54,741 nt of DNA, taken from IMG/VR virus record IMGVR_UViG_3300022200_000058, positions 1 to 54,741 of that record. One strand, 5' to 3'. Positions within the stretch are counted from its first letter, which is position 1; every line of letters begins with the position of its first letter. The notes below the pieces were generated by a model. The model had not been told where the DNA came from, ran no database searches, and saw nothing but the letters and a program-made list of their open reading frames with translations. The position numbers and the translations under genes are program-made. Positions 12,961 through 21,183 of the stretch are shown in pieces. This DNA is from a virus (Duplodnaviria > Caudoviricetes).

Positions 12961-13242
12961 TTATTTGTTCCTCCAGATACGGATAACTTTGTTGTCCCAT
13001 TCGGCACATTCGCCTGTAGGGTGCCCTTGTGCAGCAATCCACATGTTAGTTCCTTCTCCGTAGATTCCTTTGCGAACTAGTTGTGGATGCCAGCCCATTT
13101 GGGCATGACAGTTGGTGCAACACCAGTCACCGAAACGGGTGTGATATCTGTCGTACTGATGGGTACAGTTATCTGGTGTGGTGAGTGGTTCAATTGAACC
13201 TTCAGTTGGGATAGTTTTATTATTACGTTGTGTACGGGACAT
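12961..13242 (-). CDS. Cys/His-rich hypothetical protein
   Basis: CTH, WCCTNC, HPTGEC; RBS AAAGGA. Confidence 0.7.
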   Translation of the reverse strand: MSRTQRNNKTIPTEGSIEPLTTPDNCTHQYDRYHTRFGDWCCTNCHAQMGWHPQLVRKGIYGEGTNMWIAAQGHPTGECAEWDNKVIRIWRNK

Positions 13243-13625
13243 GATTATCCTTTGTTGTTGATGGCCGGCGGGAAAACAATTTATGCTGTATGTCTATAAA
13301 GAAAGACATAGATACATAAATACAGCAATGTCTGAATACATAGACACAGAAAGTGTCCACAGAAGTGGAAAGACAATAGTATAAAACATTGTCATTTTCA
13401 TATGGGTGCCCACGTGCACGGGGCCTATATTGTGGTCTGGTCAACAAAAATCGTTCTTTTATTATCCTATATGAGTGTTTGCTATAGGATACTATGCATT
13501 TGTTGTTTAATATTAGTTGTTGTTGCGTGATTTGTTAATGTAGAGTGTTTGTTGTAGGCCGGCGAAGTTGACGGTGCCGGGGGAGGACCACCTACTCAAC
13601 CCCGACACCGCCTGCCAGCGGCGAA

Positions 13626-13844
13626 CTACACTGTTAGGTCTACATTATACATTCTTTTGAAGTCACGTCTCATAGGATGGAGTGCGGACTCTGTCCCATG
13701 AGTTATATATATGTCGCAAGATTTCATGGAGGGGGGAGGGAGTATCTTGTAACATCCGGACTTCTTTTGTTCCACGCTGAATCCGAGTCTCCTAAGCTCT
13801 GAGAAGACCTTTTTCATTTGCTTGGACTGATGCTGTCTAGGCAT
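13626..13844 (-). CDS. HicA-like (dsRBD-fold) small protein
   Basis: ELRRLGFSVEQKKSGCYKI...THGT...RRDFKR; RBS AAAGGAG. Confidence 0.55.
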   Translation of the reverse strand: MPRQHQSKQMKKVFSELRRLGFSVEQKKSGCYKILPPPSMKSCDIYITHGTESALHPMRRDFKRMYNVDLTV

Positions 13845-13886
13845 CTGTATAATCTCCTTTTATGTAGCTTGCTGCTTACGGAGATT

Positions 13887-13916
13887 ATTATATCAGATGG
13901 CCGGCAAATCCGTCCA
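13887..13916 (-). promoter_or_regulatory. Sigma70-type promoter (TGGACG-18-TATAAT, extended -10)
   Basis: TGnTATAAT about 43 bp upstream of the HicA-like gene. Confidence 0.55.
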
Positions 13917-14331
13917 ATTTTCTACGAGATTTTCGGTCTAAACGCCGAAAAATAATCCTCATAGAAATCAGGAACCCCCCAAAGGGGGCCCCCCTGATAG
14001 TGAACATGGTCTATGACTAAAGATCTAGTATAGGAAAGAATAAATAAATAAAGAGAATAGGATAGCTGGGGGATCAATCCCTTTCGAGTCTTGGGGGCTA
14101 TCAACTCCCTCACAATTGTATGTGTACGTATACAATTGTATAAGTGCTTGAACGTACATTCTTCAGGTTGTGACACCATCACCACCAACTTAACTGCTTC
14201 CCGGCAAGGTCGACAGAAAAGTCAATGTCTATGTATTGCCGTACATAGAAACCAACGCCACCCCCCACCGAAGTGGGGACGCTCTGAGCCTAAGGCGGTT
14301 TATACTCGCTCAGACGAGTTGAGATAAACTC

Positions 14332-14634
14332 TCATTGTTTCCTCTCAGGTAAATTTATCAAATTGTCGCATAAATCATATGCTTCTTTTTGAAAATCAAT
14401 GCGTTGCACATCGTTTGTAATGATTCCTTCCAAATCAAGTTCTGAGTCAACAAGATACACTCGGTTGCCATCTCTAAATTCTCTGGCAAAATCTATACAT
14501 CGATGCCACATTAGATGACGAATCAGACGATGAATCTGTTTCTTAGTCATATGCGGCAAAGATGGAGGATTTTCTGGTATATCATCACCAGTAATGAGAT
14601 GGTCAACCAGGTGTTTCTTGTTACAGAACTCCAT
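14332..14634 (-). CDS. Hypothetical protein
   Basis: ORF immediately downstream of the L7/L12-like gene. Confidence 0.65.
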   Translation of the reverse strand: MEFCNKKHLVDHLITGDDIPENPPSLPHMTKKQIHRLIRHLMWHRCIDFAREFRDGNRVYLVDSELDLEGIITNDVQRIDFQKEAYDLCDNLINLPERKQ

Positions 14635-14636
14635 TA

Positions 14637-15170
14637 TCAGAAAGGGTTTTTGTGCCTGGAATCGTAGCCAGGGACACTTGAACCGCTGTCAGGCGAATGC
14701 GTGAAACAGTACGGTTCATCATGATAGGCAACCATGCGGTCACAGCCGGCATGCTCACACTCATGACGACACTCAGTATCACACATGTGATAAGAGTTTT
14801 TAACTGGAGCAGGATTATAACTTCCATCATTATTGAACGTGCCCATAGTAGGAACCTCCATGTCATGTGCCTTTAGATTGGCCGGCGAAGTAGTCTTCAT
14901 AAACTGAAGAACATCCATGAGAAAACTCAGGTTCTCATCACTACGATCCTGATACTTGACCAACTCGCTCATAACAAGCGAATAGACAGTCTGCTGAACA
15001 GGCTTCAACTCCTGGAACATGTCGTCAATCTTGTCAACAATGTTCTTAGCCTCAACCAAGCCACAGTGCGTATTGCTACGAATGTCCTTGATGAACTGAA
15101 TCTTGTTAACAACATTGAACTTATGTGTAACAACATCTTTGGACAATGGAATGTTGATGGTGGTCAACAT
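14637..15170 (-). CDS. Ribosomal protein L7/L12 C-terminal-domain-like protein with Cys/His-rich extension
   Basis: NKIQFIKDIRSNTHCGLVEAKNIVD matches bL12 CTD signature KI..IK..R....GL.EAK..V; RBS GAGG. Confidence 0.65.
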   Translation of the reverse strand: MLTTINIPLSKDVVTHKFNVVNKIQFIKDIRSNTHCGLVEAKNIVDKIDDMFQELKPVQQTVYSLVMSELVKYQDRSDENLSFLMDVLQFMKTTSPANLKAHDMEVPTMGTFNNDGSYNPAPVKNSYHMCDTECRHECEHAGCDRMVAYHDEPYCFTHSPDSGSSVPGYDSRHKNPF

Positions 15171-15217
15171 GTGTACCTCTTTCTTTATTTTGAATGTGGA
15201 TAAAACGGGTCTGATAG

Positions 15218-15296
15218 TGGAGGAGCCGGGAATCGAACCCGGGTAGCACAGCGTTCCGACATGCGGGTTTACGTGTGCGCTAAGCCCTTCTCCCCC
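15218..15296 (-). ncRNA. tmRNA tRNA-like-domain (TLD)-only RNA with alanine identity
   Basis: Acceptor GGGGGAG/CUCCUCC with G3-U70, discriminator A, T arm CCGGG-UUCGAUU-CCCGG, no D stem, helix GCACA-CGU/ACG-UGUGC closed by a short hairpin. Confidence 0.75.
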
Positions 15297-15301
15297 TAGG
15301 G

Positions 15302-15488
15302 GAGCAGTTTATGTGACGAACATACTCAGGTTCGCCCCGTTCATTTTACCATGGCTTACGGGCATCCATGTAACCCCCGAAGGGGGAGCAGTTTTATCAC
15401 ATGCTCAGGTGTTACAAGCCTGACCTCAGTATGCAGGTCATGACCCCAGGACAAGCCCAGATAACAGTTTAACGACATATCTAGGTCG
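15302..15488 (-). ncRNA. Tandem H-type pseudoknot cluster
   Basis: Three related units (15302-15336, 15386-15414, 15459-15488) with covarying stems, plus a fourth pseudoknot at about 15336-15370. Confidence 0.6.
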
Positions 15489-15496
15489 GATGGGGA

Positions 15497-16534
15497 TCAG
15501 TTACGATCAAACTCCACATCAGCATCATCAGTGCTAGCAGTGGGCTGTGCATCATCAAGACGAGTGGTACCACGACGAGTAGTCCACAAATCAATGAACA
15601 CAGGATCGTTATCGACAACCATCTCAATACGGCCACAAGTAGCCTTAATGAGATCATACTGGTCGACAGTCTCCAACGTGCCATTCACACGATTCTGACG
15701 CTGAGCCGAACCAGCCCAGTTGCCAGAAGCCTGACGAGCAAGCTCCTTCTTACGAGCAATCATGCTCTGAAGAGCCTCAAGCTTCTTACCAGTCAAGTCG
15801 GAAAGCTTACCTTCCTGATCAGTAATCCAATTGATTTGCTCCTGCTGACGCTCATAGGTTGAAACCACAGCATCAACAAAGGAAGTGAACCCCTGATTAC
15901 GAGTATTCTTAGACCGATCAGTCTTAGAAACCTCAAACCAGTTCACAGGAACACCAGTGGAATGACGATACGCTTCAGTCATCGTCCGAGGCTTATTGGC
16001 ACGCGAAGCAAAGTCATCGACAGCACCAGCACCCAAGAACGTCTCAACAAAGGCATCAAACTTATCTCGATCAGCACCAATCTGCTGAGTGAACAAGTTC
16101 GGAACCTTAGTAGAGATACCCGAAGCACCAGTGAAGTCCATCCTCATATTGAAGAGCATTTCATCAAAGGTATCGCGGGAAAGATCAGGATCATTCTCCT
16201 GAGCCTGCATGAAGAACAAATCCTGGATCGAAATCCAATCATTCTCCACCTGAACCTCAAGATTCATAGCAACCTGGCTCAACAGCATCTCAGCAACGAG
16301 ATACGTAGAGTTCGGATCCTCAACATAGGCCTGCTCACGGAGAGTAACCTGAGTCAGAAGAGGCTGATCCAGAAGGGTAACACGAGTATTCACATCGTGA
16401 CCATTGATCGAACCAGCCTGAGGCACAGTACGACCAACCTTCACTTGAATAGTGTTGCCCGAAGCAGCCGTCAGATCCAAATGGCGATCTGACACCTTAT
16501 GAACATCACTCTTGAAAAAGGACAATACGCTCAT
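15497..16534 (-). CDS. Hypothetical protein with acidic C-terminal tail
   Basis: 345-aa ORF with strong codon bias; ends ASTDDADVEFDRN. Confidence 0.8.
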   Translation of the reverse strand: MSVLSFFKSDVHKVSDRHLDLTAASGNTIQVKVGRTVPQAGSINGHDVNTRVTLLDQPLLTQVTLREQAYVEDPNSTYLVAEMLLSQVAMNLEVQVENDWISIQDLFFMQAQENDPDLSRDTFDEMLFNMRMDFTGASGISTKVPNLFTQQIGADRDKFDAFVETFLGAGAVDDFASRANKPRTMTEAYRHSTGVPVNWFEVSKTDRSKNTRNQGFTSFVDAVVSTYERQQEQINWITDQEGKLSDLTGKKLEALQSMIARKKELARQASGNWAGSAQRQNRVNGTLETVDQYDLIKATCGRIEMVVDNDPVFIDLWTTRRGTTRLDDAQPTASTDDADVEFDRN

Positions 16535-16635
16535 AACTTACAATTCAACTTTCTGTTGTCTAACTTACTTATATTATGTTATTGACATTGGTGCAAACTA
16601 TTACAGTTTACACCAATGTCAAGCTTTTGCATGTG

Positions 16636-16860
16636 TCAGGCCTGAGCCTCAATGACATCGTCGGTCAAATCAAACACGACAACATCATCGACATCAGACT
16701 CACCCATGCCTTCCTGCCAGCCTTCCTTCACCTTATCAGCGAAAGCAGACGAACCCGACTTCACTTTAGCAGTGAATGAGCTAGCAAGACTTTTCGTGTG
16801 CTTAGGAGCATCAGAGATACCCTTAGTCACAATAGCAGCAGATTTTCCAATAATCTTCAT
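16636..16860 (-). CDS. Hypothetical protein
   Basis: RBS AAAGG; acidic C-terminus. Confidence 0.7.
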   Translation of the reverse strand: MKIIGKSAAIVTKGISDAPKHTKSLASSFTAKVKSGSSAFADKVKEGWQEGMGESDVDDVVVFDLTDDVIEAQA

Positions 16861-16870
16861 TTTTTGAATG

Positions 16871-16960
16871 TTACCTTTCTACATTTTCGCCGGAAAGAAC
16901 TCCGACAGCAAATGCCAGTAAAATATTGATAGTGACACTAATAATGAACAACACAAACAT
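16871..16960 (-). CDS. 29-aa single-TM peptide
   Basis: Manual ORF MFVLFIISVTINILLAFAVGVLSGENVER; RBS AAGGGGAG; follows the cassette motif at 16985. Confidence 0.6.
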   Translation of the reverse strand: MFVLFIISVTINILLAFAVGVLSGENVER

Positions 16961-17029
16961 GTGTTTTCTCCCCTTTTGAATGCGCGTCGTCAAGTTTAGA
17001 CTCTGCGACTAAAGGTCCTACAATGCGAA

Positions 17030-17083
17030 CAAGGTGAGCGCGGGTGCAACCAGACTAATCTGGCTACACCCGCGCTTAACCTT
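17030..17083 (-). terminator. Long hairpin, probable terminator
   Basis: AGCGCGGGTG...CACCCGCGCT inverted repeat directly after the stop at 17082. Confidence 0.55.
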
Positions 17084-17222
17084 AGCTCATCTGGGTGAGA
17101 ACCTGCTCCCAGTGAACTATCGCTCGCACGATGTTATACGACTCCATCGAGGACAAGTTGGAGTTCTCCAGCTTATACCTCAACTCGGTCAAAGTCTGCT
17201 CAATGGTCTCTTGTCGCGTCAT
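17082..17222 (-). CDS. 46-aa hypothetical protein
   Basis: Manual ORF MTRQETIEQTLTELRYKLENS...QMS. Confidence 0.6.
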   Translation of the reverse strand: MTRQETIEQTLTELRYKLENSNLSSMESYNIVRAIVHWEQVLTQMS

Positions 17223-17227
17223 GGTGC

Positions 17228-17671
17228 TCACTCGAACTCCATGCCTTCGATCAGGCCATTGGCTTCAGCAGCCGAAGCGGCTCCTCGGGCAACCTTCTCA
17301 GTCCGGTTGTCCCAGACCTGCTTGACAAAACCAGCCAAGACGGCACCCATGTTGTCGCGGGTCAAATCGAGGCTCCGATAAGGGCGAGAATCGCTCTTAC
17401 GGAACTTCTGCTCAATCACCGCAGAATCGATGTCAACCCAGGTCTGATGGCTCTTATTGACACCATCGGGCTTCAGCAGGCCAAAGACCCACTCTCGCAG
17501 AATCTGGTCCTGCATGGTGACCTTGCCGTTCTTGGCGCGAACGGGCAGCTTCAGGCTCTCTGCGGGCACCTCGAAGAACAGAGGCTGACCCTGGAGATCC
17601 TGGGGATTGTGGGGCGTGAGGCTGATCTTGGATTCACCAGCTCCAACCCAGAAACGGATAAGATTTGCCAT
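17228..17671 (-). CDS. Cassette protein, distant paralog of 18198..18557 and 19440..19796
   Basis: Shared IR.WVGAGE..IS..P; start MANL at 17671 after GGAAGGAG. Confidence 0.8.
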   Translation of the reverse strand: MANLIRFWVGAGESKISLTPHNPQDLQGQPLFFEVPAESLKLPVRAKNGKVTMQDQILREWVFGLLKPDGVNKSHQTWVDIDSAVIEQKFRKSDSRPYRSLDLTRDNMGAVLAGFVKQVWDNRTEKVARGAASAAEANGLIEGMEFE

Positions 17672-17870
17672 GTTCAAGCTCCTTCCAAGCTGAATCGGAT
17701 AATATGGCACCGCCGAAGGCGGCGTTCTCAAGTTTAGACTCTAAGGACCTAAAGACTATATTCACTATCAAAAAATGCTAGTGATATATAATATTAATAC
17801 AGCCTGGGCGGCAATGAAGTGAATAAAAGTCTATGAACAAAAGATGAAGAAGCCCCCGAAGGGGCATTCC

Positions 17871-18074
17871 TCACCAGTTCGCCTCCACGAACTCTTCGGT
17901 CTCCTGAGAAACCTTCTCCTTGAAGAATGGATCCAACTTGGTGGACCTGATCTTCTCGGAGATGTCTGGCCTGACCTGAACCAGACAGTTGAAGTACCAC
18001 TGACCATATCTTTGGTCGGTGACTTCTGGACGATGGCTTTGCTTTGTTGATGCCACGAACTGCCAGTATTCCAT
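17871..18074 (-). CDS. Cassette hypothetical protein (67 aa)
   Basis: RBS AAAGGAG; followed by a cUUCGg hairpin at about 17852-17866. Confidence 0.8.
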   Translation of the reverse strand: MEYWQFVASTKQSHRPEVTDQRYGQWYFNCLVQVRPDISEKIRSTKLDPFFKEKVSQETEEFVEANW

Positions 18075-18146
18075 GGGATCTCCTTTCTACTTGTCCCGTT
18101 CTCAAATTTCTGGGACTAAATAATAATATTATAACTAAAGATCTAG

Positions 18147-18182
18147 CCCCCCGAAGGGGGGGGGAGGCCCGAAGGCCTCCCC
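18147..18182 (-). terminator. Tandem cUUCGg hairpins (putative terminator)
   Basis: GGAGGCC-UUCG-GGCCUCC and CCCCC-UUCG-GGGGG; identical copy at 19389-19424, variant at 18661-18696. Confidence 0.65.
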
Positions 18183-18197
18183 TGTCACCCCTGTGGC

Positions 18198-18557
18198 TCA
18201 GCTCCAGTTGAACTCAGCCACGATGGCGTCAGCCGCGGTGGTGTCCACGGCTGCACTCTTCTCGCGACGGGCCTGCTGGCACAGCGCGAGGAACTCCTTG
18301 AGGATGTTCTCATCCCTGAGCTCAAGACGATACGCGGGGGTACCGTCGCTCAGCGTGAACACCTCGAAGAGGCTCACGGGGACCTCCGGGGTCATGACGT
18401 GAGTCTTCACGCCATCGGTCCAGAGACCGGCCCGGAGCTTCGCACGCGTCGCATCGGACGCATTCACGAAGACCGGGGTGTTGCCGGACACGGGCTTGAA
18501 GGACACACCCTCCTCACCCGCACCGACCCATCCGCGGATGGTCGGAGTTTTGCTCAT
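18198..18557 (-). CDS. Cassette protein, paralog copy A (119 aa)
   Basis: RBS AAAGGAG; highly similar to 19440..19796. Confidence 0.9.
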   Translation of the reverse strand: MSKTPTIRGWVGAGEEGVSFKPVSGNTPVFVNASDATRAKLRAGLWTDGVKTHVMTPEVPVSLFEVFTLSDGTPAYRLELRDENILKEFLALCQQARREKSAAVDTTAADAIVAEFNWS

Positions 18558-18708
18558 GTGGTTCTCCTTTCACGAGCATGGGCCAAGTACCTCCTGGCTC
18601 CGTTCTAAAGTTTCTGGGACTACATAATCACTATCAAAGTTCTAGTGATTAAAGATCTAGCCCCTCGAAGAGGGGAGGAAGCCCGAAGGCCTCCTCTCTC
18701 CTCTCCCC

Positions 18709-19068
18709 TCAACTCGCGAGTTGGGCCACAGCACCCTCGATTGTGCTGCGATCCACCCAGTCGGTTTGCTTGCCGCTCAGGACGATGCAGGCCCATTCGG
18801 TAACCGGCTTCGCCATGACAGTCTGGGACCGAACCCAGCGCTTGCCACTGTGACGGTTGATGCCGCCAACATTGGCCACGATCCGGAACGAATCGTTCTT
18901 ACCGAGGTAAACCACGGCAGAGCGGACGATGGGCCCGATGGTGAACTCATCGAACTGCTCACCCTGGACTCGCCAGAAGGTGTTGCCCTTCCGGTCGATA
19001 CGGCGCTCGAACTTGCCAGCGGTGATGCACCGGATGACGTAGTCAAGCAGGATTGCGGTAGTGCGCAT
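18709..19068 (-). CDS. Cassette hypothetical protein (119 aa)
   Basis: RBS AAGGAGG; GC3-rich codons. Confidence 0.8.
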   Translation of the reverse strand: MRTTAILLDYVIRCITAGKFERRIDRKGNTFWRVQGEQFDEFTIGPIVRSAVVYLGKNDSFRIVANVGGINRHSGKRWVRSQTVMAKPVTEWACIVLSGKQTDWVDRSTIEGAVAQLAS

Positions 19069-19156
19069 CTGGCACCTCCTTGCAGAATCGGCTGTTCATC
19101 TGCGTTCTCAAGTTTCTGGGGATAAAGACCTAACAACTAAAGATCTATAACGAAAA

Positions 19157-19191
19157 AGTGGGAGAGGCCCCCGAAGGGGCCTCTCTCACTT
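19157..19191 (-). terminator. Intrinsic terminator
   Basis: GAGAGGCCCC-UUCG-GGGGCCUCUC stem followed by a U-tract on the minus strand. Confidence 0.75.
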
Positions 19192-19305
19192 CTTCTTCTC
19201 GATCTTCTTCCTTGCTTCCTCCTTCTCCTCCTCAGTCCAGCGAGAACTAAAGATTGTGGTCCATGGAGCCTTGCGATTCGGATTGTCAAGTGCATTCTTC
19301 GGCAT
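19186..19305 (-). CDS. 39-aa charged peptide
   Basis: Manual ORF MPKNALDNPNRKAPWTTIFSSRWTEEEKEEARKKIEKKK; RBS AAAGGAGGTG. Confidence 0.75.
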   Translation of the reverse strand: MPKNALDNPNRKAPWTTIFSSRWTEEEKEEARKKIEKKK

Positions 19306-19439
19306 AATTACACCTCCTTTCTCTCGTTCACACGCTTCTGGGACTAATACTACTATCACTATCAAAATTCTTACAATTAAAGATCTAGCCCCCCGAAGGG
19401 GGGGGGAGGCCCGAAGGCCTCCCCTGTCACCCCTGTGGC

Positions 19440-19796
19440 TCAGCTCCAGTTGAACTCAGCCACGATGGCGTCAGCCGCCGTGGTGTCGACACCGTCGCTC
19501 TTCTCGCGACGTGCCTTCTGGCACAGAGCGAGGAACTCGGTCAGAACCTGCTCGTTCGTCAGGTTCAGACGATACGCGGGGGTACCGTCCTTGAGCGTGA
19601 ACACCTCGAAGAGGCTCACGGGGACCTCCGGGTCCATGACGTGGGTCTTCACGCCATTGGTCCAGAGACCGGCTCGGATCTTCGTGCGAACGTCGTCAGA
19701 CGCTCGCACGAAGACCGGGGTGTTGCCGGACACAGGCTTGAAGGACACGCCCTTCTCACCGGCTCCGACCCATCCGCGGATGGTGGGACTGCTCAT
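19440..19796 (-). CDS. Cassette protein, paralog copy B (118 aa)
   Basis: RBS AAAGGAG; duplicate of 18198..18557. Confidence 0.9.
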   Translation of the reverse strand: MSSPTIRGWVGAGEKGVSFKPVSGNTPVFVRASDDVRTKIRAGLWTNGVKTHVMDPEVPVSLFEVFTLKDGTPAYRLNLTNEQVLTEFLALCQKARREKSDGVDTTAADAIVAEFNWS

Positions 19797-19922
19797 GTGG
19801 TTCTCCTTTCATGAGCATGGACCAGGTACCTCCTGGCTCCGTTCTAAAGTTTCTGGGGCTAAAAATCACTATCAAATATATAACTAAAGATCTAGCAGGG
19901 CAGAAGGGGAAGACCCCGGGCG

Positions 19923-20042
19923 TCAGCCCGAGGTCTTCTTCTTGCCCTTCATGTGGCACGCCTTGACGGCTGCCACAGTCTTATGCCTCACCTCCTTCCG
20001 CTTTCCGTTCTCCCACTTCGAGCACTTACCACAGACGATCAT
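19923..20042 (-). CDS. 39-aa basic Zn-binding-like peptide
   Basis: MIVCGKC...H...C; RBS AAAGGAGG before ATG at 20042. Confidence 0.75.
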   Translation of the reverse strand: MIVCGKCSKWENGKRKEVRHKTVAAVKACHMKGKKKTSG

Positions 20043-20116
20043 GTCGCCTCCTTTCCTCGTTCCCAAGCTTCTGGGGCTAAAGATCACTATCAAAATGCTA
20101 GCTCGACAAAGAGGGA

Positions 20117-20311
20117 TCACCCCTGACATCCGCAGATGTCAAGGGCAACCGTCCTCTTCACACACAATGGACACTCGGCCTGGAACCCAGCCGCACCATC
20201 CATCGTGTGACAGCCCATCTCATGCGCACGAATCCATCCGATCCGACGACACGCGAAGTACTGCTCACTGCCAACGACATGACGTCGTCGACACACGCTG
20301 CATGTGATCAT
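20117..20311 (-). CDS. Cys-rich small protein
   Basis: CSVC, CPLC; ATGA coupling; RBS GGAGG. Confidence 0.7.
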   Translation of the reverse strand: MITCSVCRRRHVVGSEQYFACRRIGWIRAHEMGCHTMDGAAGFQAECPLCVKRTVALDICGCQG

Positions 20312-20475
20312 GCTTCAAACCACCTCCTTCCGAGGATGCCACCCATCGCGACCATGCAGGCCACGAGGATACCGTGTTCGGGATGCGTGAACCCCTCCCA
20401 CTGCCAACCCATCCAGCTCTGCGCTGCAAACAGCCCAAAGAAGATGGCAACGATGAAGACTCGGACAATGTACAT
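20308..20475 (-). CDS. Small two-TM membrane protein
   Basis: Start MYIV at 20475 after GGAGG. Confidence 0.7.
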   Translation of the reverse strand: MYIVRVFIVAIFFGLFAAQSWMGWQWEGFTHPEHGILVACMVAMGGILGRRWFEA

Positions 20476-20616
20476 CTGATCCTCCCTGCACAGGAATCGT
20501 TCGGTCATCCCGTGCGTTCACACGCTTCTGGGGCTATGGATACTATCACTATCAAGAATCTAGCCGGCCAAAACAGGAGGGTCCCGACCCCCCCGAAGGG
20601 GGGCCAGGACGACCTG

Positions 20617-20859
20617 TCAGACGAGCCAGTTCTTGAACTCGGGCTCAGCTGGACGCGTGTACAATGGGAGGGTGAGACCCCATGCACGTGCGTACGACTC
20701 CGCGGTGCGGACCGTGTTGGCCTCCATCTGTCCGGTGATGTCCACCGTACGGACGTTGGTACCCTCCAAGATGCACCACTGTCCACCGTTCGTGTGAACG
20801 ATGCGTCCCTCGCGAGCAGCGGGAACGATGAACTCATTGATGAGAGTGTGAACATTCAT
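20617..20859 (-). CDS. Cassette hypothetical protein (80 aa)
   Basis: RBS AGGAGG; followed by a cUUCGg hairpin at 20588-20603. Confidence 0.8.
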   Translation of the reverse strand: MNVHTLINEFIVPAAREGRIVHTNGGQWCILEGTNVRTVDITGQMEANTVRTAESYARAWGLTLPLYTRPAEPEFKNWLV

Positions 20860-21183
20860 GACTATTATCCTCCTGCAGAGATCAGTTGTTCACTCTGCGT
20901 TCTCAAGCTTCTGGGGTATACCCCCGTACCCTCGTTAAAGAAACAAGAGTACATATATATCTACTATTACCCGCTCATAAATTTTCCTTTATTTTTCCAT
21001 GATATAGTTTTTTATATACCTTTATAGGGGCTGTGGGGGTGGTCGGGCCGCCGGAAAAACTTTTCTGAGAAATATTGATCTACTACTTGACAAGGATCTA
21101 ATACATATGCTTAGATGACAGTTAACCACCACAAGGTGGGGGAAATATCAAGCACCCAATGCTTAACACTCAAGGGAGTTGTA

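Follow-up and report, generated by a model that had tools for sequence, protein, structure and literature searches.

The window analysed here is the full length (54,741 bases) of the IMG/VR virus record IMGVR_UViG_3300022200_000058, whose CheckV completeness of 26% gives, by arithmetic from its 54.7 kb, a full genome of ~200 kb. Terminase, portal, RecA, a ClpX-like ATPase and a helicase are encoded in the window, together with two tRNAs (tRNA-Arg and tRNA-Asn) and a pistol ribozyme, and DNA near-identical to the record is found in freshwater and aquatic metagenomes. In a region of small early-type genes, ~5 kb from the nearest tRNA, a gap of 326 nt between two minus-strand genes (14637-15170 and 15497-16534) holds the gene for a short tmRNA-like RNA, referred to below as the mini-tmRNA. 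Its parts, with two neighbouring features, are as follows (R1 and R2 are family models introduced in the next section).

15218..15296, minus strand: whole TLD-only (tag-less) tmRNA-like gene, 79 nt, with the 5′ G at 15296 and the discriminator A at 15218
15290..15296, minus strand: 5′ strand of the acceptor stem, GGGGGAG, nt 1-7, with G3 at 15294; pairs with 15219-15225 in the MFE and centroid structures
15279..15289, minus strand: D-loop analogue AAGGGCUUAGC, nt 8-18, unpaired; aligned with the family consensus GGUUUCGAC by R1 and R2
15246..15278, minus strand: helix-2 module, nt 19-51 (MFE)
15256-15266, minus strand: cap hairpin CCG-CAUGU-CGG (MFE)
15243..15245, minus strand: linker U52 A53 C54, where the consensus is GGAC (alignments)
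15226..15242, minus strand: T arm CCGGG/UUCGAUU/CCCGG (sequence, fold and Rfam alignment)
15219-15225, minus strand: 3′ strand of the acceptor stem, CUCCUCC, with U70 at 15221 (sequence)
14637-15170, minus strand: gene just downstream of the mini-tmRNA, encoding a 177-aa protein
14256-14319, minus strand: pistol self-cleaving ribozyme (Rfam RF02679, 71.3 bits against a cut-off of 34.5, full length)

The earlier note on this DNA had described a G3·U70 pair, a discriminator A, a canonical T arm, an unpaired D-loop region and a hairpin-capped helix 2, and both the sequence and the MFE structure agree with that description. The acceptor strands (nt 1-7 with nt 72-78 of the RNA) form seven base pairs, in tRNA numbering G1-C72, G2-C71, G3·U70, G4-C69, G5-C68, A6-U67 and G7-C66. 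Helix 2 comprises 8 bp in the MFE structure, from G19-C51 to U26-A43 with one bulged C (C46); beyond it come an internal loop (AAAC/A) and a CCG/CGG stem whose loop is CAUGU. This cap hairpin sits where a full tmRNA would have its mRNA-like domain and pseudoknots, and the helix-2 module as a whole measures 33 nt. As the discriminator A is followed by CUA, the CCA end is not encoded, which is likewise the case for the tRNA-Arg and tRNA-Asn of the window.

It had also been proposed that the RNA carries neither an anticodon nor a tag reading frame. The anticodon arm is indeed absent, whereas the second part holds for the family rather than to the letter for the window copy, in which a 3-codon frame with a GCG start and a UAA stop lies inside the paired 5′ strand of helix 2. 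Such a frame is unconserved: among the matches listed, 51 of 83 family sequences have no stop-closed frame with a GCN start and 13 of the 83 have no stop triplet of any kind, so a tag frame is not a family feature. The mini-tmRNA is moreover a single chain in the standard order rather than a two-piece (permuted) tmRNA, and the two-piece model RF04321 matches its 17-nt T arm only (12.9 bits).

A promoter scan found no sigma-70-like promoter near the gene, and the sole terminator-like site nearby is on the plus strand, overlapping the RNA 5′ end. An upstream motif, AUAAACUGCUCCCC, is present in two copies in the gap and has eight matches in the window at up to 3 mismatches; as a window-wide promoter it was rejected, eight matches being reached in 8 of 100 shuffles. 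The leader (15297-15396, minus strand) contains two copies of AAACUGCUCCCC, each followed by a G-run hairpin (15299-15312 and 15383-15396), and in the proximal hairpin the 3′ half coincides with the 5′ acceptor strand of the RNA (CUCCCC-UA-GGGGGAG), so that the acceptor stem can be masked in the precursor.

Model matches and relatives in other phages

The Rfam tmRNA model (RF00023) matches 15215-15296 on the minus strand from model position 1 to 374, skipping 312 internal positions, and outscores every other tRNA-clan family on the element. Its score of 41.2 bits is below the gathering cut-off of 47 (E = 4e-15 over 501 bases and 1e-16 over the record); for comparison, a genuine phage tmRNA (Annadreamy, 299 nt) scores 79.4 bits. 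ARAGORN made no call at the element, and the check suggested in the earlier note, with ARAGORN and tmRNA models, divided into a negative outcome for the former and an end-to-end, sub-cut-off match for the latter. For this window, the gain is a modest one, namely the correct annotation of an RNA gene missed by ARAGORN and scored under the Rfam cut-off.

A further model, R2, was built from 61 elements (60 other IMG/VR elements and that of phage DS6A) with the window left out, and scored the window element at 67.0 bits (E = 2.8e-12 over the whole window), while the phage's own tRNAs reached at most 14.5 bits. Because RNAalifold missed helix 2 in the alignment behind it (A2), R2 tests sequence, acceptor and T arm only. 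The 74.1 bits obtained with model R1 are inflated, since the window is within the R1 training set. The folding energy of the element is unremarkable (z = -1.00, with 34 of 200 shuffles folding as well) and, judged from sequence, the decisive evidence that the mini-tmRNA is more than chance is comparative.

An element-shaped pattern, with the acceptor and T-stem constrained and the centre free at 20-50 nt, was found at no fewer than 120 IMG/VR loci, representing 84 unique sequences. Three loci among the matches (two unique sequences) were ordinary tRNA-Ala genes with leaders, which look quite different from the mini-tmRNA elements, and were removed; five further loci were kept, where ARAGORN had forced tRNA calls on elements without a D arm. 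None of the first-pattern elements among the matches listed was given an ARAGORN tmRNA call. In an alignment of 83 unique sequences from these loci (at least 120), window included, 93.8% of cells were paired as against 69.7% in shuffles, and the covariation score was 0.561, compared with 0.120 in shuffles (0 of 500 reaching the observed value) and 0.07-0.11 with slid partners. The acceptor and T-stem columns that are invariant in this first set are not evidence, since they were fixed by the search pattern; the helix-2 pairs, which the pattern left unconstrained, had all changed on both sides (6 of 6), and selection has thus acted on the structure. With the Rfam tmRNA model, a family model built independently and the covariation of the family all in support, the TLD-only tmRNA identity stands, and the 79-nt mini-tmRNA is confirmed as a real RNA gene of this type, at exactly the coordinates (15218-15296) that the earlier note had assigned to it.

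The sequence of the helix-2 cap is conserved, with CCGCA present in 28 of 83 and 34 of 80 unique centres where 3-5 are expected from shuffles. At the family loci among the matches listed, the CCGCA cap is usually preceded by an A-rich loop, and the two together resemble GUAAAuAaaccgcc of the Rfam tmRNA consensus at pseudoknot 1. Most members of the family are solitary, another tRNA being present within 1 kb at 18 of 120 loci among the matches listed. BLAST searches of cultured phages with a 2-kb query and with the 321-nt gap gave no match, while a 91-nt query returned T-arm fragments and one partial match, which led to Streptomyces phage Alone3. This cultured phage has an unannotated mini-tmRNA within a tRNA array (OR725492.1, 18155-18231; 48.7 bits with R1), with a G3·U70 pair and an imperfect T stem. 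R1 matches in Gordonia phage GMA2 and Synechococcus phage S-CRM01 were not counted, as they scored 25-29 bits with many broken pairs.

A precedent given in the earlier note proved to be in print, the entry 'Mycobacterium phage DS6A (TLD only)' being listed in a passage of Hudson, Lau & Williams 2014 (PMC4131195). The DS6A element (JN698994, 28478-28557; tmRNA Website tmID 11587; 59.1 bits with R1) shares the architecture of the window RNA: it is 80 rather than 79 nt long, with the same order of parts, a G3·U70 acceptor and a D-loop analogue, a helix 2 of about 8 bp, an A-rich internal loop, a CCG/CGG-type cap hairpin and a T arm, and its discriminator A is likewise followed by C. The two elements agree in layout even as to the A-rich loop and the cap, which reads CCGCACGCGG in DS6A, and the same family models score both. 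In contrast, DS6A has the consensus junction (UCGAC...) where the window has UUAGC...UAC, and the phages themselves are unrelated, DS6A being a 60.6-kb actinophage with the element between structural and replication genes and ours a freshwater phage, known from a 54.7-kb partial record, with the element among small early-type genes. In size (65-90 nt) and in its unpermuted series of acceptor, D-loop analogue, helix 2 with hairpin and T arm, the window RNA conforms to the DS6A type. By its sequence and architecture it is a further example of this 'TLD only' kind, which is already published, and it belongs to a large phage family that includes DS6A. A full-text literature search returned no description of a wide phage family of such RNAs. 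DS6A was the sole phage example named in the literature searched; more CDS-less forms from viruses may be tabulated in the database of PMC11915505.

The tmRNA database paper of 2025 (PMC11915505) likewise presents DS6A as its phage example, together with CDS-less tmRNAs of mitochondria and plastids. Compared by description, mitochondrial tmRNA (RF02544) and the ~65-bp CDS-less plastid tmRNAs of Mallomonadaceae are also without a tag frame and co-occur with SmpB (PMC11915505), but these organellar forms are vertically inherited and serve the genome that encodes them, whereas the phage form would serve an invader that acts on a host system. With standard tmRNA (RF00023) the window RNA has in common the alanine-identity acceptor, the T arm, a GG-containing D-loop analogue and the start of helix 2; it lacks the mRNA-like domain, the resume codon and the tag frame, along with the pseudoknots PK1-PK4 and the long helix 2 / helix 5 (312 of 374 positions).

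Alanine identity and the putative SmpB site

A second scan imposed no constraint on the acceptor stem and fixed just the D-loop/helix-2 junction together with the T arm. It found at least 128 loci with 93 unique elements, 91 of which had at least six of the seven acceptor pairs. Among the matches listed, the alanine identity set was kept (G3·U70 in 90 of 91, A73 in 91 of 91, G1-C72 in 91 of 91 and G2-C71 in 90 of 91), while the pairs 4:69, 5:68 and 6:67 of the 91 elements listed switch freely among G-C, C-G, U-A and A-U. The window copy has the full set: G1-C72, G2-C71, G3·U70 and A73. Since the identity set is fixed while neighbouring acceptor pairs vary, the elements seem to be selected for alanine charging. 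C follows the discriminator in 88 of the 91 listed elements, whereas 16 of the 91 encode the full CCA, which suggests separate selection on the first C of the CCA end.

These patterns bear on whether the element has any trans-acting function at all, or is instead a degenerate tRNA-Ala, a leftover attP from a tmRNA integration site or a form of RNase P/Z punctuation, an alternative of the kind already raised in the earlier note. The window RNA does share G3·U70, A73, a 7-bp acceptor stem and a T arm with tRNA-Ala, but it has no D stem and no anticodon arm. Its position in a 326-nt gap between two minus-strand genes, the silence of ARAGORN and the finding that some T-arm BLAST matches elsewhere are att-type fragments beside integrases (for example, in phage Squirty) would all be consistent with a functionless remnant. 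However, att remnants keep the 3′ part only, whereas both halves of the TLD are present and paired here; no tyrosine integrase was found among the window proteins (record 26% complete); and the tmRNA model beats all other tRNA-clan families. Family-wide covariation and the fixed alanine identity show selection on the RNA itself, and a functionless element is accordingly very improbable.

The contacts of SmpB with E. coli tmRNA are described from cryo-EM in PMC8363625, in which A15, U17 and A334 form a pocket and G19 is stacked on C18. The D-loop analogue of the window RNA contains G11 G12, U15 (15282) and G17 (15280), and we infer that U15, G17 and A53 (15244) are the probable positional equivalents of E. 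coli U17, G19 and A334; on this mapping, three of the four named contact nucleotides (U17, G19 and A334) are kept by position in the window copy, which departs at the equivalents of A15 (C13) and of the stacking C18 (A16). Rfam's own low-confidence alignment gaps the D-loop-analogue stretch instead of mapping it. Among the matches listed, the A53 column holds A in 80 of 83 sequences and is preceded by G in 57 of 83; the window has U at the G333 equivalent, and the equivalent of A20·G333 is C·U. The window junction reads UUAGC...UAC where UUCGAC...GGAC is usual (AGCG/CUAC as against CGAC/GGAC), the consensus CGAC/GGAC form being present in 32 of 83 sequences among the matches listed. A dedicated scan placed the variant junction of the window copy at 9 IMG/VR loci (4 distinct sequences), and the SmpB affinity of this subgroup is uncertain because both the junction and the A15 equivalent differ from the consensus.

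As to the source of SmpB, no SmpB was found among the window proteins (record 26% complete), and the protein is encoded in none of five carrier phage genomes that are 91-100% complete (118-185 kb). The tmRNA-model matches of at least 45 bits in the same five genomes are short forms of 73-83 nt only, one per genome, and in four of the five carriers these pass the Rfam gathering cut-off (48.4-65.4 bits). With none encoded in the five near-complete carriers, the SmpB partner of the mini-tmRNA would have to come from the host.

Possible action on trans-translation

Trans-translation is the main bacterial pathway of ribosome rescue and quality control, and a small RNA carried by phages of many lineages to interfere with it would act as a natural inhibitor, or re-router, in compact form. 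The two functions suggested in the earlier note, an SmpB decoy and a tag-less rescue RNA, are both live candidates for the mini-tmRNA. Each scan returned at least 120 loci where the literature searched names one phage example (DS6A), and the strong selection for alanine identity sharpens the question of whether these RNAs act as a sponge or as a charged competitor.

On balance, we lean towards an alanine-charged mimic that would use host SmpB and EF-Tu to outcompete host tmRNA, with nascent chains escaping the tag, and hold this to be probable by a modest measure. The mini-tmRNA would be cut from a longer transcript, as phage tRNAs are, and would have its CCA added by a host enzyme; host AlaRS would then charge it with alanine, and host SmpB and EF-Tu would bind it. 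In this state it could vie with host tmRNA for ribosomes stalled on broken messages. Because the mini-tmRNA is without a resume codon, nascent chains would receive at most one alanine and no degradation tag, and with chains left untagged during infection, ssrA tagging and its consequences would be damped.

Published experiments are compatible with this sequence of events and with a simpler one. According to a passage in PMC4131195 (citing Mao et al. 2009), a similar molecule strongly inhibited tmRNA whether or not it could be charged, 'perhaps acting by titrating SmpB', and PMC4131195 and PMC11915505 both state that such a molecule inhibits endogenous tmRNA in E. coli. Inhibition regardless of chargeability, as that passage of PMC4131195 reports it, fits equally well a passive sponge, in which host SmpB would be titrated off the ribosome and neither charging nor ribosome entry would matter, and the apparent retention of SmpB-contact equivalents would also suit such a role. 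A sponge needs no alanine identity set, however, yet the set is held constant as the acceptor pairs next to it freely covary, and the window junction differs from the consensus SmpB site. That the alanine set is so strictly retained favours a charged, ribosome-directed competitor over a passive sponge, which we consider possible but unlikely.

Conserved alanine identity fits any ribosome-entering role, including a productive, tag-free rescue in which the phage would profit from stalled ribosomes being recycled faster and not from host tmRNA being inhibited. Here, transfer of alanine would be followed by drop-off, by peptidyl-tRNA hydrolase or by an alternative rescue factor. The short helix-2 module (33 nt) would agree with this, as would the persistence of CDS-less tmRNAs together with SmpB in jakobid-type mitochondria, where they are thought to be helpful (PMC11915505). 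Against it, the published test was reported as inhibition of tmRNA (PMC4131195 and PMC11915505), and no dedicated release factor is suggested by the window or the five complete carriers, in a search that covered SmpB only. We regard tag-free rescue as decidedly unlikely.

A more speculative variant, which we rate as quite doubtful, is that the alanylated RNAs go with host SmpB into vacant A sites and add untemplated alanine to stalled chains, as a single residue or as several over repeated rounds. If true, the phage would run a template-free rescue of its own, sparing proteins translated from its damaged messages, and the conserved CCGCA cap would be a functional contact and not mere closure. 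Such capping would be analogous in outcome to RqcH alanine tailing, and also to the mitochondrial tag-less tmRNA.

RNA-library coverage and genomic surroundings

Six metatranscriptome runs match parts of a 2.4-kb stretch around the gene, and four runs were mapped as assembled contigs on window positions 13000-18000. The gene-containing bin is covered in three of the four, at depths of 20.1 (X14), 19.7 (X17) and 1.8 (X18), and the pieces listed extend over 15248-15581 (X17) and 15226-15376 (X18), none of them spanning all 79 nt. X16 is uncovered over the gene and some bins are uncovered in all four runs, which is not evidence of silence. This coverage lends weak support to the presence of the mini-tmRNA in RNA libraries, the contigs being without ends or strand and DNA carry-over being possible. 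One X17 contig has a C>A change at 15278 and a 241-nt skip; the change corresponds to G19 to U in the RNA and would open the first helix-2 pair. Far above all else mapped, at a depth of 134, X14 contains a 130-nt piece at 13629-13758 with adaptors on both sides, which overlaps the ORF at 13626-13844 (fold z-score -1.88) and may derive from a short RNA of high abundance or from a stable fragment. A reading of this ORF as HicA-like was a guess without support, there being no Pfam match.

The gene just downstream of the mini-tmRNA encodes the 177-aa protein listed above, whose residues 13-54 resemble the C-terminal (factor-binding) domain of ribosomal protein L7/L12 (Pfam PF00542, 26.7 bits against a cut-off of 25.9) and are followed by a Cys/His-rich tail. 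An L7/L12-like gene beside a tmRNA mimic is a suggestive pairing; the L7/L12-like neighbour was not seen at the other family loci among the matches listed (at least 120). A tblastn search with 9 neighbouring window ORFs against the family loci listed (at least 120) likewise returned no match, indicating that the neighbourhood is not shared, and tblastx of the window against the 9 loci of the variant-junction subgroup gave just two short matches, both away from the element. Pfam searches with 10 small neighbouring ORFs found nothing above cut-off, and no relatives of the upstream 345-aa protein were found. As for a host, the 3′ 23-mer of the element occurs in two species-representative genomes, both of them weak matches that are not tmRNA, and no host was inferred.

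The pistol ribozyme shares the strand of the mini-tmRNA, lies ~900 nt further downstream and is flanked by two small ORFs. On the other side of the gene, at ~17000-21000, is an island of higher GC content (50-59%, as against about 38-42% elsewhere in the window). The island contains nine copies of a 22-nt motif spaced about 50-515 nt apart, a 300-nt duplicate of 88% identity, and paired G+C hairpins whose loops read CGAAG; it looks like an array of small genes with promoter- and terminator-like signals for each.
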